Below are positions 5,061 through 57,232 of a stretch of 64,000 nucleotides of DNA, one piece after another (the first letter of the stretch is position 1; every line of letters begins with the position of its first letter). Made by a program: the position numbers and the translations under genes. Under the pieces are notes generated by a model. The model did no database searches. It worked only from the letters and a program-made list of their open reading frames with translations, and had not been told where the DNA came from. The DNA is from Escherichia phage vB_EcoM_ASO1B. The stretch lies in sequence record MZ726792.1, one strand, 5' to 3'.

Positions 5061-5136
5061 GTGGCCTTATCATAAATGGTAATGACCCATGCTGTGAACA
5101 TGGTCTATACGGGTTCAAATCCCGTAGGTCACCCCA
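5061..5136 (+). tRNA. tRNA-His (anticodon GTG)
   Basis: D-stem TCAT/ATGA, perfect anticodon stem CCATG/CATGG with loop CTGTGAA, T-loop TTCAAAT, CCA. Confidence 0.7.
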
Positions 5137-5141
5137 ATTTA

Positions 5142-5218
5142 TAGTCCAAGTAGCTTATATGGTTAAAGCGCGTGTCTGAAAAACATGAGAAGAGGGTTCA
5201 AATCCCACTGGACTACCA
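5142..5218 (+). tRNA. tRNA-Phe (anticodon GAA)
   Basis: Perfect 7-bp acceptor TAGTCCA/TGGACTA, anticodon loop CTGAAAA, T-loop TTCAAAT; 5' end and D-stem register uncertain. Confidence 0.55.
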
Positions 5219-5234
5219 ATTTCAAAGGTGCTTA

Positions 5235-5969
5235 ATGAAAGAGATGACAGAACAAGGTAAGGAGATTTTTAATCTCTTAAAAACCGGTAAAGGGTTTTCT
5301 AACCCACTTATTACTGGTGCAGCAGTTCTCGGTGGAACCGTAGCTGCCTCTACATCACTTGTAAGCTCTATTAGTTCTGTAACAGACCCTACAATGCAGG
5401 AGAAACTTGTTGCTGCTGGACTTACAACAGTCCTTCTAAACAGCTTTACAACAAGCCTTACAAGCACTACAGCAACTACTAAGACCCTGACAGACTACGG
5501 TCAAAAGTCTATTGATGAGTTTTCATCACGTATGCAGGTAGCAAAGGGATATTCCAATGTTATGAGTGCAGCAGGAGAACAAGTTGGTTGTACACCGTTC
5601 AGTGGTATTATGGGTGTTGCTACAGAATATGGTCAAAAAGCTATTGATACAATTAACAGTACACTAGAGAGTGTTAACGATGTATTAAGTGACTTACAAG
5701 ACGCTATTGATGAGGGTCTTGATACTATTTCTGATTTAGCTAATCAGGCTGTTAGTAAGATTAATGAAGGTATTTCAAAGATTACAGCTTATGCAGATGA
5801 AGTTGTGCAGATGATTGAAGAAGAAGCTGCCCTTATTGCAGAGTACCTTAAAACGAATATCAATGGGTTCTTAGCAGGTATCTTACCAGACTGGTTTGAC
5901 GATGCCTGTAAAACTGGTGTAATTGACACTATTGCAACACCAGAAATGAAGAACGCATTACAGAAATAA
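5235..5969 (+). CDS. hypothetical Ser/Thr/Ala-rich protein (245 aa)
   Basis: ORF in track; start moved to ATG 5235 (AAAGGTG ribosome-binding site) because the track start at 5172 lies inside tRNA-Phe. Confidence 0.55.
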   Translation: MKEMTEQGKEIFNLLKTGKGFSNPLITGAAVLGGTVAASTSLVSSISSVTDPTMQEKLVAAGLTTVLLNSFTTSLTSTTATTKTLTDYGQKSIDEFSSRMQVAKGYSNVMSAAGEQVGCTPFSGIMGVATEYGQKAIDTINSTLESVNDVLSDLQDAIDEGLDTISDLANQAVSKINEGISKITAYADEVVQMIEEEAALIAEYLKTNINGFLAGILPDWFDDACKTGVIDTIATPEMKNALQK

Positions 5970-5971
5970 AT

Positions 5972-6064
5972 GGAAGATTAACCCTAAAAGGTAAGGGAGC
6001 AGTTTGCTAAACTGCCAGTAGCTGAGAAATCGGTGTACCAGTTCAAGTCTGGTATCTTCCTCCA
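5972..6064 (+). tRNA. tRNA-Ser (anticodon GCT), long variable arm
   Basis: Perfect acceptor GGAAGAT/ATCTTCC, perfect anticodon stem GCAGT/ACTGC with loop TTGCTAA, 21-nt variable arm, perfect T-arm, CCA. Confidence 0.75.
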
Positions 6065-6068
6065 ATTT

Positions 6069-6144
6069 GAATCCGTGACAGAAATGGCTATGTGCCTGTC
6101 TGCAAAACAGGTTTATAAGGGTTCGAGTCCCTTCGGATTCTCCA
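6069..6144 (+). tRNA. tRNA-Cys (anticodon GCA)
   Basis: Perfect acceptor GAATCCG/CGGATTC, perfect anticodon stem CCTGT/ACAGG with loop CTGCAAA, T-loop TTCGAGT, CCA. Confidence 0.75.
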
Positions 6145-14740: not shown

Positions 14741-15314
14741 AAAAGGTCTAGTTAGAACCTTAGTGGATGTTATTGGTCACAGACTAGCTCGTGATAAGAA
14801 TAATAGACCAAATGTAATTAGAGCTTACCCTTCTGATAACTCAAATGACAAAGGTTTAAAACCTGACCAGCCATTTATTACCGTATATTGTCAAGATGCT
14901 GCAACACCTTATGGTTGGGTTCTTGATAAGTTTGTTGAGGATGATGTAGTTTGCTACAGAATTGCTTTTCAGATTCCTGTATTAATTACGGTGAATGGTA
15001 AAGGTGCTCACAGTATTATGCTTGAGCTTAAACAACGATTAGAGATGAGTTCAGTCAGAGATTTAATCCTTGAAGAAACAGGAGCTACAGTACTGGACAC
15101 TGGAGCTATCCCGAATGACTATACTTATCTCAATACAGATTTCGAAAATTCTGCACCTCTTGTTGTAACTCTTGTAAAAAACTCAGTCCTGAAGGATGAA
15201 CGTGGAAGTATTATTGAGCGTGTCATTGTTGATGGTGAGTTGGTTTATGAAGAAGGACAAGAGCCACCAGAATATACTATCCATCTAGATGTAGACTCCA
15301 AAGGGGTAAAATAA
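14715..15314 (+). CDS. hypothetical protein (199 aa), possibly tail completion
   Basis: ORF in track immediately upstream of the putative sheath gene. Confidence 0.45.
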   Translation: MQLETAELEKGLVRTLVDVIGHRLARDKNNRPNVIRAYPSDNSNDKGLKPDQPFITVYCQDAATPYGWVLDKFVEDDVVCYRIAFQIPVLITVNGKGAHSIMLELKQRLEMSSVRDLILEETGATVLDTGAIPNDYTYLNTDFENSAPLVVTLVKNSVLKDERGSIIERVIVDGELVYEEGQEPPEYTIHLDVDSKGVK

Positions 15315-16667
15315 ATGTGGAATCCAATTGTTAATGTAGATATTACATTGAACACCGCAGGAACTACAAGAGAAGGTTTTGGTTTGCCACTATTCTTAGC
15401 TTCAACAGATAATTTTGAAGAAAGAGTACGTGGTTACACTTCCTTAACTGAAGTTGCTGAAGATTTCGATGAAAACTCTGCTGCATATAAGGCTGCTAAA
15501 CAACTTTGGAGTCAGACTCCTAAAGTAACTCAGCTTTATATTGGTAGACGTGCTATGCAGTACACTGTATCAATTCCTGATGCCGTTACCGAAAGTACAG
15601 ACTACTCAATTACTGTAGCTGCTGGCGGTGGAATTTCTCAACCATACCAGTACACAGCACAAGATTCAGACACTGCTGAGGTAGTGTTGCAACAGTTTAA
15701 AACACAGATTGAAGCTGACCCAACAATCAAAGATAAGGTTTCTGTGAATGTAACTGGTAGCAATGGCTCTGCCACAATGATTATTACCAAAGCTGGTGAT
15801 AATGACTTTGTGAAAGTAACAACCACAGCACAGACTGTATACATTGCAAGTACAACTGCCGATACAGCATCAACTGCTCTGGCAGCTATCGAAGCTTATT
15901 CTACCGACTGGTATTTCATTGCAGCAGAAGACAGAACTCAACAGTTTGTCTTAGCAATGGCTTCTGAGATTCAGGCTCGTAAGAAAATCTTCTTTACGGC
16001 TAACTCCGATGTAACAGCCCTACAAGGTACAGAATTAGCCAGTGCAAATGATGTTCCAGCACAGCTTGCTAAGAATATGTACACTCGTACAGTTTGCTTG
16101 TGGCATCACGCAGCAGCAGAAGATTATCCAGAGATGGCATACATTGCTTATGGTGCTCCATATGATGCAGGCTCAATTGCTTGGGGTAATGCTCAGCTAA
16201 CTGGCGTAGCAGCTTCTCTACAACCATCTAATCAGAGACCTCTGACAAGTATTCAGAAGTCTGCTTTAGATGCACGTCACTGTAACTTTATTGACCTTGA
16301 TGGTGGTGTTCCAGTGGTTCGTAGAGGGATTACCTCTGGTGGGGAATGGATTGATATCATCCGTGGTGTTGACTGGTTAGAATCAGACCTGAAAACTTCT
16401 CTGAGAGACTTGCTAATTAACCAGAAGGGTGGTAAGATTACTTATGATGATACTGGTATTACTCGTATTCGTCAAGTCATTGAAACCTCTCTGCAAAGAG
16501 CAGTCAACAGAAACTTCCTGTCATCTTACACAGTTAATGTTCCTAAAGCCTCTCAAGTTGCTTTGGCAGACAAGAAAGCTCGTATCCTGAAAGATGTTAC
16601 CTTCGCAGGTATCTTAGCAGGGGCTATCTTGGATGTTGACTTGAAAGGTACAGTGGCTTACGAATAA
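15315..16667 (+). CDS. putative tail sheath protein
   Basis: 450 aa gene followed by a 148 aa tube-sized gene, chaperone pair and tape measure, the canonical contractile-tail order. Confidence 0.5.
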   Translation: MWNPIVNVDITLNTAGTTREGFGLPLFLASTDNFEERVRGYTSLTEVAEDFDENSAAYKAAKQLWSQTPKVTQLYIGRRAMQYTVSIPDAVTESTDYSITVAAGGGISQPYQYTAQDSDTAEVVLQQFKTQIEADPTIKDKVSVNVTGSNGSATMIITKAGDNDFVKVTTTAQTVYIASTTADTASTALAAIEAYSTDWYFIAAEDRTQQFVLAMASEIQARKKIFFTANSDVTALQGTELASANDVPAQLAKNMYTRTVCLWHHAAAEDYPEMAYIAYGAPYDAGSIAWGNAQLTGVAASLQPSNQRPLTSIQKSALDARHCNFIDLDGGVPVVRRGITSGGEWIDIIRGVDWLESDLKTSLRDLLINQKGGKITYDDTGITRIRQVIETSLQRAVNRNFLSSYTVNVPKASQVALADKKARILKDVTFAGILAGAILDVDLKGTVAYE

Positions 16668-16682
16668 TAGAGGTAAATTGGA

Positions 16683-17129
16683 ATGGCTATGTATCAGCAA
16701 TATTCCCCTAAAGACGTTGTATGTAGCTGGAATGGTATTGCCATTGAAGGCTTTGCCCCAGACTCATTTTTACGTCTACAGAGAACATCACCACTTATCA
16801 CACCAGTTGTAGGTGCAGGTGGTCAGGTTGCTCTGACAAGAAATGCAGACAAGACAGGTACTATTGAGATTGAGCTAATGCAGACTTCTCTCTCTAACCA
16901 GATGCTTTCTGCAATTCAAGCTAAACAAGACAACATGGAACTTGAAGAAGATATCTCTTCTAACTTCGTAATCTACGACCCATCAGGCTCTGTTCTGGCA
17001 ACTGGTATTAATGCTTGGTTGCAGGAATTACCACAGATTGAACTTGGGCGTGACCAGAACTCTAAAACTTGGATTTTTGGTTGTGAGAAGCTAGACTATA
17101 CTTCAACAATTCCAGCGTCAAGTGTTTAA
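16683..17129 (+). CDS. putative tail tube protein
   Basis: 148 aa, between sheath-sized gene and chaperones; followed by a strong terminator. Confidence 0.5.
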   Translation: MAMYQQYSPKDVVCSWNGIAIEGFAPDSFLRLQRTSPLITPVVGAGGQVALTRNADKTGTIEIELMQTSLSNQMLSAIQAKQDNMELEEDISSNFVIYDPSGSVLATGINAWLQELPQIELGRDQNSKTWIFGCEKLDYTSTIPASSV

Positions 17130-17142
17130 TAAATCCTATAAG

Positions 17143-17175
17143 GGGGAGACTTTAAAAGGTCTTCCCCTTTTTTGT
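17143..17175 (+). terminator. rho-independent terminator after tail tube gene
   Basis: GGGGGAGAC-TTTAAAAG-GTCTTCCCC followed by TTTTTT. Confidence 0.7.
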
Positions 17176-17201
17176 TTCTTTTAAAGTATTAAGGAATCAC
17201 A

Positions 17202-17600
17202 ATGAAAACAGAATCTAGAGTAATTAATGGTAAGAAAGTAAATATCGTTCTGCTTGGGGCAAGAGATGGTATTAAGATGTCTATGAAGTTGGGTAAAATT
17301 GTTGTTCCAACCTTTGCACAGATGCTATCAAGTCTGACTGATAAAGATAAGAAAGAAGCTCCAATGGTTCCATTTAAAGACCTTGTTGAAGCTTGTTTTG
17401 ACAGAATTGAAGAAATTAACCTTGAAGAGATGGCTACCTTATTATTTCAAGGGGCAACTGTTGACGACTTCCCACTTAATATTGATACGTACTTCCAAGC
17501 AAACTACGGTGAGTTTATTGATTACTTAGCATTTGCGCTGGAGGCAAACTTCGGAAGTTTTTTCGAAGCAAGCATTTTCAAAAGCCTAACTTCTCAGTAA
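17202..17600 (+). CDS. tail assembly chaperone (G-like)
   Basis: 132 aa acidic ORF directly upstream of tape measure; slippery heptamer T-TTT-TTC at 17558-17564 in the correct phase. Confidence 0.55.
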   Translation: MKTESRVINGKKVNIVLLGARDGIKMSMKLGKIVVPTFAQMLSSLTDKDKKEAPMVPFKDLVEACFDRIEEINLEEMATLLFQGATVDDFPLNIDTYFQANYGEFIDYLAFALEANFGSFFEASIFKSLTSQ

Positions 17601-17602
17601 AC

Positions 17603-17841
17603 ATGGGTAACACTCTACAGACACCACTAACTGATGCTGCTGTAGAGGCAACCTATGAAGAAGCAGACGAGATGAAATTTGTGCTTGCTATTTATGGTAT
17701 GGAAGGGTGTAAAGAAACACTTGACCAACTCTTTGCTATGACATTCTCTGATTTATTATCATTGAGACAATTTCTTGAGATTCAGAGGTCGTATAAAGAG
17801 GAAATTGCTTACAACGAACTTAGAAGAGCAGGAAAAATGTA

Positions 17842-17842
<1 letters not shown>
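17603..17842 (+). CDS. tail assembly chaperone frameshift extension (GT-like -1 frame ORF)
   Basis: ORF lies in the -1 frame relative to 17202-17600; the -1 frame is open from 17564 through ATG 17603. Confidence 0.5.
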
Positions 17843-25858
<8,016 letters not shown>

Positions 25859-54926: not shown

Positions 54927-57071
54927 ATGAACAAAGTACAGATTATTAAAAAGAATGGCTCACTTGAAGAACCTGATATCAAAAAAGTTTTAGCAGCAGT
55001 CACAAAGTCAGCTAACAGAGTTGGTTATAAAGAGCTTCCACCAGATGTTACTCAAGCTCTTGAGTCAGCATTTATGAGGATTCTGGTAAAGTCCACTAAG
55101 CAGAATAATTTGCTAATTTCGGTAAATGATATTCACAGTATTGTTGAGGGTGCTTTGGCAGAAGTCAATCACGAGATTTATGAGTCTTACTCAACATATA
55201 GAAATTACCGTAAAGAGGTTGCTCAAAATTGGGATGAACTCTACCAGAAGACTAAAGATACACTCTTCTTAGGTGACCGAGAAAACGCTAATTTTGACAG
55301 CAGTTTAATTTCTACAAAAGGTTCAATTATTCGTGGTTATCTGACTAAAGAAATCTTTAAACAGTACCATTTAACACCAGAGGAACTTGAAGCCATTGAA
55401 AAAGGGTTTATCTACATCCATGATTTAAGAGACCTAATTTTTGGTGGTATCAACTGTTGCCTGTTTGACATTGGTAAAGTCCTGAAAGGTGGCTTTGAAA
55501 TGTCTGGCATCGAATATTGTGAACCGAAGTCTGTACTGTCAGCCTTACAGGTTATTGGTGATGTAGTTCTTTCAGCAACTGCACAGCAATTTGGTGGCTT
55601 TACTTTAGCAGAGATTGATAAGGTACTTGTACCGTATGCTAAGAAGTCTCTACACTATCATGCTGAGAAAGCAGCATCTTATGGTATTCCTAAAGAACAT
55701 TACCACAATTATGTCATGGAGCAGCTACAGATTGAACTGACTCAGGGTTTCCAGTCACTTGAAATGAAACTAAACACTGTACCTTGTAGTCGTGGGGATT
55801 TTGCATTCACAACTTTGACATTCGGGTTACTTGACTCAGATATGTCCAATGAAGATAACCGACTGCAATACATGATTGCAAGTACTCTCCTAGATGTTCG
55901 TATGAATGGACAAGGTAAGAGCAAGAAGCCTGTTGTATTCCCTAAACTGGTTTATATTTATGACCAGAAGAGACACGATGAGAATATCTGTCAAGGCCAC
56001 CTGTACAGTAAAGCTATTGAGTGTTGCTCTAAAGCAATGTATCCAGACTTCTTAAGTGTATCTGGTCATGGTGCTGTAGCAGAGGCTTTTGAGCGTTCTG
56101 GTAAGGTTATTTCACCAATGGGTTGCAGAGCTTTCTTGTCTCCATATCTTAATGAGGATGGGGAAGAGTTCTACGTTGGTCGTGCTAACATTGGTGCTGT
56201 ATCTTTGAACTTACCAATGATTTACCAGTATTCTAAAGAGAATGGATTAGACTTCTGGACAGAACTTGATAAATATCTCGAAATGATTCGTAGCTTCCAT
56301 AAGAAACGCTACGAAATGATTGCTAATATGCCAGCAAGTTCTAACCCTCTTGCATTCACACAAGGTGGTCTGTACAAAGGAACTAAGAAACCTACTGACA
56401 AGGTTGGTTGGGATATTGTGAAGTCCTTCACAGCTTCTTTTGGTGTTACTGCGCTTGATGAGTTGTCTGTTCTTGCTGAAGGTAAACGACTTCATGAAGT
56501 TGGAAGCTATAGTTTTGCATATGATGTTCTGGCATACATCAACATGAAAACCGAAGAGTTTAAAAATGAAGATGGCTTCTTATATGCCGTCTATGGTACT
56601 CCAGCAGAATCACTATGTGGGACTCAGCTAAAACAGTTCAGAGATATGTTTGGGGTTATCAAAGGTGTTTCCGATAAGGAATACTTTACAAACAGTTTCC
56701 ATATGAATGTTGCAGCAGACATCTCGCCATTTGAGAAGCAGGACTTAGAAGAGCCATTCTTCCATATCTGTAGAGGCGGTAGAATCCAGTATGTAAGAGT
56801 AGCTAACCCAGAAAACTTAACAGCACTTAAAAGTTGTATTACAAGAGGGATGTTGAAAGGTTTCTATCAGGGGCTTAACTTTGACTTAGCAATCTGTGAA
56901 CATTGTGGTAACAGACCAAAGGCTGATGTTGAAGAATGTGAGGTTTGCCATTCACATGATATCTCTGTGATTAACAGGGTGTGTGGGTATCTTGGATGGA
57001 CTAAGATTAAAGGTGAATCCCGAATGAACGATGCAAAAATCGCTGAGATTCGTGATAGAGTCTCTATGTAA
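54927..57071 (+). CDS. nrdD: anaerobic ribonucleoside-triphosphate reductase
   Basis: C-terminal Zn ribbon CEHCG...CEVCH and glycyl-radical motif RVCGYLG; 714 aa. Confidence 0.9.
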   Translation: MNKVQIIKKNGSLEEPDIKKVLAAVTKSANRVGYKELPPDVTQALESAFMRILVKSTKQNNLLISVNDIHSIVEGALAEVNHEIYESYSTYRNYRKEVAQNWDELYQKTKDTLFLGDRENANFDSSLISTKGSIIRGYLTKEIFKQYHLTPEELEAIEKGFIYIHDLRDLIFGGINCCLFDIGKVLKGGFEMSGIEYCEPKSVLSALQVIGDVVLSATAQQFGGFTLAEIDKVLVPYAKKSLHYHAEKAASYGIPKEHYHNYVMEQLQIELTQGFQSLEMKLNTVPCSRGDFAFTTLTFGLLDSDMSNEDNRLQYMIASTLLDVRMNGQGKSKKPVVFPKLVYIYDQKRHDENICQGHLYSKAIECCSKAMYPDFLSVSGHGAVAEAFERSGKVISPMGCRAFLSPYLNEDGEEFYVGRANIGAVSLNLPMIYQYSKENGLDFWTELDKYLEMIRSFHKKRYEMIANMPASSNPLAFTQGGLYKGTKKPTDKVGWDIVKSFTASFGVTALDELSVLAEGKRLHEVGSYSFAYDVLAYINMKTEEFKNEDGFLYAVYGTPAESLCGTQLKQFRDMFGVIKGVSDKEYFTNSFHMNVAADISPFEKQDLEEPFFHICRGGRIQYVRVANPENLTALKSCITRGMLKGFYQGLNFDLAICEHCGNRPKADVEECEVCHSHDISVINRVCGYLGWTKIKGESRMNDAKIAEIRDRVSM

Positions 57072-57079
57072 AACTTGAC

Positions 57080-57125
57080 AAGGTGATGTGGGTCTTGATA
57101 GGCTTACATCACCTTTTTTTTTTTT
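57080..57125 (+). terminator. rho-independent terminator after nrdD
   Basis: AGGTGATGT-loop-ACATCACCT followed by a 13-nt T-run. Confidence 0.65.
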
Positions 57126-57232
57126 TATTGGATGTTAGATATGGCAGAGAACATCATTGGCCTATTCATAGGTTCTGTCTTACTAGGGTTCTTTTTAGGA
57201 CTCTCTTATTGTGAATTAAGAGGCAAGTTAAA

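Follow-up and report, generated by a model that had tools for sequence, protein, structure and literature searches.

The window (the whole 64,000-nucleotide stretch of Escherichia phage vB_EcoM_ASO1B analyzed here, MZ726792.1) comes from a Felix O1-like myophage in the genus Felixounavirus (Ounavirinae). Its region 15300-20100 shared 98.6% identity with Escherichia phage radambza, and 17150-17900 was 100% identical to vB_EcoM_ASO1A. PHROG and Pfam matches revealed, in 5' to 3' order on the plus strand, the genes for a tail sheath protein (15315-16667; PHROG 205, 1e-123), a tail tube-like structural protein (16683-17129; PHROG 280, 9e-48; Pfam PF11681) directly upstream of the chaperone pair, the tail assembly chaperone G (17202-17600; 132 aa, zero frame; PF21822 Phage_TAC_15; PHROG 1613, 8.8e-49), a second tail assembly chaperone T (17603-17842; 79 aa from ATG 17603; PHROG 4963, 2.8e-55), and the tail length tape measure protein (17842-20070; 742 aa; PHROG 4036, E 0; Pfam PF20155 TMP_3). 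The match of G to PF21822 covered residues 9-124 of 132 and scored 71.6 bits (E 1.2e-19), above the curated gathering threshold of 22 bits, and a Shine-Dalgarno (SD)-like AAGGA (17191-17195) precedes the G start. The tape measure ATG at 17842 overlaps the stop codon TAA (17840-17842) shared by T and the predicted GT fusion, forming TAATG. This order agrees with the G/GT-like arrangement upstream of the tape measure gene that an earlier note on this DNA had claimed; two chaperone ORFs between the tube and tape measure genes occupy the canonical G/GT frameshift position.

A strong intrinsic terminator with a 13-bp stem (AAGGGGGAGACTT/AAGGTCTTCCCCTT) and a T tract was found at 17140-17179, between the tube and chaperone genes; the annotations of wV8, Michonne, and ASO1A include it too. 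Its expected effect is that the chaperone and tape measure genes are transcribed less than the sheath and tube genes. Elsewhere in the window, a run of 13 T (57114-57126) proved to be the U tract of an ordinary-looking intergenic intrinsic terminator (57081-57126, stem GGTGATGT...ACATCACC) located after a 714-aa ORF (54927-57071).

The slippery heptamer T_TTT_TTC lies at 17558-17564 on the plus strand in the X_XXY_YYZ phase of G, where the zero-frame codons read ...GGA AGT TTT TTC GAA GCA... and the heptamer falls in codons 119-121 (AGT TTT TTC; S119, F120, F121). Both its position and its phase were exactly as the earlier note had described them. From CGA 17564, the -1 frame reads CGA AGC AAG CAT TTT CAA AAG CCT AAC TTC TCA GTA AAC ATG, i.e., 13 codons (17564-17602) up to ATG 17603, and then stays open to TAA 17840-17842, in keeping with the claimed read-through into ORF 17603-17842. 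The 13 open codons of that claim held as a count from the heptamer to ATG 17603, but the full -1 opening begins at 17522 and overlaps G by 25 codons. A shift at the heptamer would join residues 1-121 of G to a -1 segment of 92 codons plus stop (17564-17842, plus strand), yielding a predicted GT of 213 aa (about 24 kDa) beside the 132-aa G. The predicted size equals the length of the joined CDS in Salmonella phage Mushroom (641 nt in two pieces). The junction of the predicted GT reads ...ANFGSFFRSKHFQK..., and the predicted GluC junction peptide would be ANFGSFFRSKHFQKPNFSVNMGNTLQTPLTDAAVE, with ANFGSFFE as its counterpart in G.

T_TTT_TTC was the sole in-phase X_XXY_YYZ heptamer in the G gene of the window, and the search for other slip sites in the overlap returned only A_AAT_TTC in a single relative. 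A +1 shift was rejected, the +1 frame closing 3 codons past the G stop. Among the ORFs of at least 120 aa within the window, in-phase XXXYYYZ heptamers numbered 69 in 17,826 codons, TTTTTTC occurring in phase only once; the chance of at least one such heptamer per 25-codon overlap was approximately 0.09, or approximately 0.025 for the classes that are efficient in E. coli. Taken alone, the heptamer is mildly improbable, and it is the comparative data that give it significance.

Conservation of the heptamer and synonymous constraint

Related loci were collected from GenBank phages (Felixounavirus, Mooglevirus, Suspvirus, Kolesnikvirus/phiEa21-4, and Yersinia phage P778) together with 36 IMG/VR loci that were found using an alignment of G proteins and ranged down to 25-30% identity. 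Absence of the heptamer from relatives had been set beforehand as the outcome that would speak against a frameshift; an in-phase T_TTT_TTY was kept in 47 of the 48 related loci, reaching 25-30% protein identity. These comprised T_TTT_TTC in 41 loci, T_TTT_TTT in five distant loci (L043-L047), and a 7-T run in one (Escherichia phage CL1), and spanned Felixounavirus, Suspvirus, Mooglevirus, Kolesnikvirus, Yersinia phage P778, and four metagenomic lineages with 25-30% identity. In every heptamer-bearing locus, the -1 ORF reached 57-80 codons past the G stop and ended at the start of the tape measure gene, and the distant loci were flanked by tube-like and tape-measure-like genes. The -1 frame of five loci (L006, L033, L035, L044, and L045) opens just 1-3 codons upstream of the heptamer, so the shift cannot take place earlier there, which pins the site. 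The G protein has a conserved motif, S-F-F-E-A-S, which accounts for part of the heptamer conservation.

Several loci depart from the common pattern. The sole related locus without a T-run heptamer (L048; IMGVR_UViG_3300035050_000006, 1197-1640; 25% identity) carries, inside a -1 overlap of 81 codons, an in-phase C_CCT_TTC that possibly took over as the slip site. Within the distant clade, a second in-phase heptamer was found within 3-4 codons of T_TTT_TTT in L043 (1848-1866; G_GGA_AAG, a lambda-type motif, and A_AAG_GGT), L045 (1854-1869; G_GGA_AAC), and L046 (1833-1851; A_AAG_GGT), and these are possible tandem slip sites. CL1 (OK040806.1, locus positions 709-715) has 7 T at the equivalent of window positions 17558-17563, where ASO1B has 6, so that G and T appear as one 642-nt 'tape measure chaperone' CDS; the extra T may stem from an error in homopolymer sequencing or assembly, or it may be genuine, in which case the phage would make only GT.

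Synonymous variation changed abruptly at the heptamer. Across six lineages, the share of same-amino-acid pairs using the same codon was 55% upstream of the heptamer versus 93% from the heptamer on, and where the amino acid of a column was invariant, its codon was too in 3 of 29 columns upstream versus 7 of 7 starting at the heptamer (Fisher p 1.4e-5). The multi-lineage alignment delimited a nucleotide-invariant dual-coding block, AGTTTTTTCGA.GCAAGC.TTTTCAAAA.CC (17556-17586, plus strand), and the 22 nt downstream of the heptamer (CGAAGCAAGCATTTTCAAAAGCC) were near-invariant between genera, whereas the rest of G showed approximately 51-58% nucleotide identity. In blastn comparisons of the window with Erwinia phages, only 17547-17587 matched, at 92.7% identity. 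The 28-mer AGTTTTTTCGANGCAAGCWTTTTCAAAA was confined in IMG/VR to contigs of the Felix O1-like phage group. The abrupt end of synonymous variation at the heptamer is the pattern expected if the -1 frame were translated from that point.

The same run of T could in principle act at the level of transcription, with RNA polymerase adding a U to the run of six (seven in the distant clade), which would leave some mRNAs encoding GT in one frame. Efficient slippage by bacterial RNA polymerase generally involves A/T runs of about 8-9 or more, whereas the run comprises only six T here and in 41 loci, and seven in the distant clade. The site is nonetheless a homopolymer that reaches T7 in that clade, the protein product would be identical to the GT of a ribosomal frameshift, and the CL1 DNA, with one extra T, does encode a single fused product. 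UUUUUUU is also under-represented in all E. coli frames, possibly on account of transcriptional slippage (PMC4066793), but the comparable TTTTTTG case of phage P2 has been described as translational (PMC3091744). Runs of six or more are, moreover, common in the window (11 T runs and 27 A runs). That the run always stands in the exact X_XXY_YYZ phase also speaks against polymerase slippage, although this is a weak point, since the conserved Phe-Phe pair sets the phase as well. Overall, we consider transcriptional slippage very unlikely.

Possible independent expression of T and candidate signals near the heptamer

Another reading holds that two separate proteins are all that is made, with the 79-aa T being translated from ATG 17603 by termination-reinitiation and the heptamer representing no more than two Phe codons, without a functional fusion. 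ATG 17603 does lie just 2 nt past the TAA of G, most GenBank records, including the Felix O1 RefSeq, give two independent CDS, and the S-F-F-E-A-S motif could be conserved for the sake of the G protein. However, this ATG is not preceded by an SD sequence (upstream sequence cctaacttctcagtaaac) and is not conserved, as start positions shift or vanish across relatives: the first T-frame start comes 4-5 codons later in Moogle-like phages and is TTG in P778. The T frame of a phiEa21-4-like locus (L041) and of L044-L047 contains no ATG, GTG, or TTG for 46-64 codons past the heptamer, and yet the T-domain sequence (…Y..Y….KE[TN]…) is kept in all of them, which implies that T is produced there only through a frameshift fusion. 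In the phiEa21-4 record itself, the T ORF is unannotated. The codon evidence points in the same direction, because approximately 10 lineages all keep the wobble T of the preceding codon and encode the first Phe by TTT rather than TTC, and the synonymous sites of 8 further codons are all frozen, none of which a protein motif alone would need. Exclusive production of separate proteins is accordingly highly improbable. The programmed -1 frameshift is compatible with an additional route in ASO1B, where the ATG of T lies 2 nt after the G stop and some free T could be made by termination-reinitiation.

A local hairpin was predicted at 17602-17657, with an outer stem CAUGGGU/ACCUAUG and an inner stem CUCUACAG/CUGUAGAG (z -2.0 for 17565-17680), and it is kept in close relatives only. 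It sequesters ATG 17603 and could disfavor independent initiation of T. As a classical frameshift stimulator, this hairpin was rejected, given its distance of approximately 37 nt from the heptamer, which is too far, and its conservation in close relatives only.

The last explanation, that a single G-T gene was split by a homopolymer error (6 T for 7) or a recent inactivating mutation, has the 7-T, continuous CDS of CL1 (OK040806) in its favor but is practically negligible, as exactly 6 T occur in 41 independently sequenced Ounavirinae loci with the G stop kept a few codons downstream, the split is kept in relatives at 25-50% protein identity, and a fused-sequence search of 5.8 billion proteins returned only G-length proteins of 124-136 aa and none fused, although this search shows little beyond fused versions being uncommon.

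The downstream hairpin or pseudoknot that the earlier note had suggested looking for did not emerge in convincing form. The minimum free energy of 17565-17600 was -2.3 kcal/mol (z +0.31), and 17565-17630 folded at -3.4 kcal/mol; neither segment folded better than its shuffles. RNAalifold on six Ounavirinae lineages gave no conserved 3' structure, with a consensus of -2.5 kcal/mol and little covariation. In the distant clade, hairpins were predicted 4-5 nt past the T7 heptamer (-9.7 kcal/mol in L043 and -10.2 in L044), but the five-sequence consensus reached only -3.3 kcal/mol. Phage P2 shifts frame at TTTTTTG without a hairpin (PMC3091744), so the absence of one here is no argument against frameshifting. 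In E. coli, H_HH.U_UU.Y is among the best frameshift motifs, and U_UU.U_UU.C and U_UU.U_UU.U each gave more than 0.1% frameshifting without a stimulator (PMC4066793).

Upstream of the heptamer, an internal SD-like GGAGG (17540-17544, plus strand) is a candidate stimulator, its predicted duplex with the 3' end of 16S rRNA having an energy of -9.3 kcal/mol. It lies 13 nt 5' of the heptamer, a spacing that reportedly, from the work of Larsen et al. in 1994, falls in the range stimulating -1 shifts. Of the 10 lineage types compared, 7 carry an SD-like motif 11-13 nt 5' of the heptamer, among them Felixounavirus, Mooglevirus, Suspvirus, L043, L044/45, and L047, and the motif is partly forced by the L-E-A codons. 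It was absent from the phiEa21-4-like phages, Yersinia P778, and L046, three lineages that keep the heptamer, and therefore is not a defining part of the signal. There is a weak indication that GGAGG may add dnaX-like stimulation through 16S rRNA pairing. A pattern scan also proposed the T run as an intrinsic terminator, with a 6-bp stem (17538-17554) followed by AAGTTTTTTC; this was rejected, since the stem is weak, contains two G-U pairs, and is absent in phiEa21-4, and approximately 0.7 chance hits are expected in the scanned region.

A more speculative and rather unlikely proposal is that the signal extends beyond the heptamer, with CGAAGCAAGCATTTTCAAAAGCC and GGAGG acting as an unstructured, sequence-specific stimulator and the phage tRNA-Phe(GAA) perhaps tuning slippage. 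Beyond dual coding, such stimulation could operate through mRNA-rRNA pairing or through a nascent-peptide or codon-context effect. If true, frameshifting in a phage tail chaperone gene would here be stimulated in a way that does not rely on a hairpin. The window carries a cluster of 25 tRNA genes (993-6144), typical of Felix O1-like phages, in which tRNA-Phe(GAA) (5143-5218) decodes both slippery codons, tRNA-Ser(GCT) (5972-6064) serves AGT, and tRNA-Arg(ACG) (3894-3969) serves CGA, the first -1 codon.

Frameshift model, annotation, and known systems

Collectively, gene order, the sole in-phase heptamer, its conservation, the startless T frames of relatives, and the synonymous constraint support the G/GT-type -1 frameshift put forward in the earlier note. 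On this comparative sequence evidence, G and T are very probably joined by a programmed -1 ribosomal frameshift on TTTTTTC, of the lambda G/GT and P2 E/E+E' type. Most ribosomes would read 17202-17600 to the stop codon and produce the 132-aa G. A minority, probably a few percent, would slip back one base when the P site (UUU, 17559-61) and the A site (UUC, 17562-64) are each occupied by tRNA-Phe, the two tRNAs re-pairing with UUU UUU (17558-63). Translation would resume at CGA 17564 in the -1 frame and continue via ATG 17603 to TAA 17840-42, giving the 213-aa GT. The slippery heptamer may be sufficient by itself. By analogy with lambda, the tape measure protein would be covered by many copies of G, and the tube protein would be recruited by the T domain of the scarcer GT; the G:GT ratio would be set for tail assembly, and neither protein would be present in the virion.

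The chaperone frameshift join is already known, as a prediction, in close relatives. Salmonella phage Mushroom (NC_041923, FDH40_gp069/gp070), a member of the same genus, has the same locus with 97.6% identity over 751 nt, and its record joins the two pieces, from the G ATG to the T stop, into a frameshifted 'tape measure chaperone'. The same join is annotated in the Citrobacter phages Moogle and Michonne, the 'ribosomal slippage' coordinate of Michonne falling inside the same T run, and the genome announcements of the Citrobacter phages Moogle and Mijalis mention the frameshift (PMC4319497, PMC5543628). ASO1B does not differ substantively from Mushroom, Moogle, Michonne, or Mijalis, whose joins are predictions as well. 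Most other records of the genus, including that of the type phage Felix O1, lack an annotated join. The literature searched contained no experimental proof, either of a fusion product or of a frameshift rate, for Felix O1-like phages.

The significance of the frameshift lies mainly in annotation, as most of the approximately 300 Felix O1-like GenBank genomes list two chaperone genes and miss the 213-aa GT. Felixounaviruses find wide use in the biocontrol of Salmonella and E. coli and as chassis for engineering, for which correct annotation of tail assembly genes is useful. The locus adds one more case of a conserved tail chaperone frameshift, with unusually clean comparative support from relatives without a T start codon and from a synonymous constraint that begins exactly at the heptamer.

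Some records of this region appear anomalous. In LR597658.1 (VpaE1_ev108), product names look shifted or misassigned: G is named 'Hc1 head closure protein', T 'Tc1 tail completion protein', the tape measure protein 'Tail sheath protein', and the sheath protein 'Ad1 adapter protein'. These wrong names seem to have spread to UniRef and other records, e.g., 'head closure protein' for G in phage C600M2. In addition, a stretch with 97-98% identity to the Felix O1-like tail module occurs in GU169904.1 (Staphylococcus phage SA1) and in MG065664.1 (Campylobacter phage A132). Such a module is hardly plausible in phages of these hosts, suggesting that the records are contaminated or chimeric.

Three known systems offer a comparison. 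The -1 signal of E. coli dnaX consists of A_AAA_AAG with an upstream SD-like element and a downstream hairpin. ASO1B resembles dnaX in having GGAGG 13 nt 5' of the heptamer but lacks a stable hairpin 5-9 nt 3' of it. Lambda G/GT shares with ASO1B the position between the major tail/tube and tape measure genes. In lambda, a small amount of -1 shifting close to the 3' end of G generates a fusion, and the ratio between this fusion and G is important in assembly (Levin, Hendrix & Casjens 1993; Xu, Hendrix & Duda 2004, 2013, 2014; summarized in PMC5009743). Lambda is, however, a siphovirus with the heptamer G_GGA_AAG, and the roles of G and T in ASO1B are drawn from it by analogy alone.

In the FETUD tail operon of P2, a -1 frameshift occurs at TTTTTTG (Christie et al. 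2002, as cited in PMC3091744). The P2 heptamer ends in G, whereas that of ASO1B ends in C (T in distant relatives), and the P2 proteins (91/142 aa) are shorter than those of ASO1B (132/213 aa). PF21822 Phage_TAC_15 is the only Pfam match of ASO1B G, so the likeness to P2 gpE drawn here is one of arrangement. Both phages have a contractile tail, the tape measure gene is preceded by a small chaperone ORF whose final part contains a heptamer built on U6, the short product and the -1 product (predicted in ASO1B) start with a common N-terminus, and neither phage shows an RNA structure downstream.
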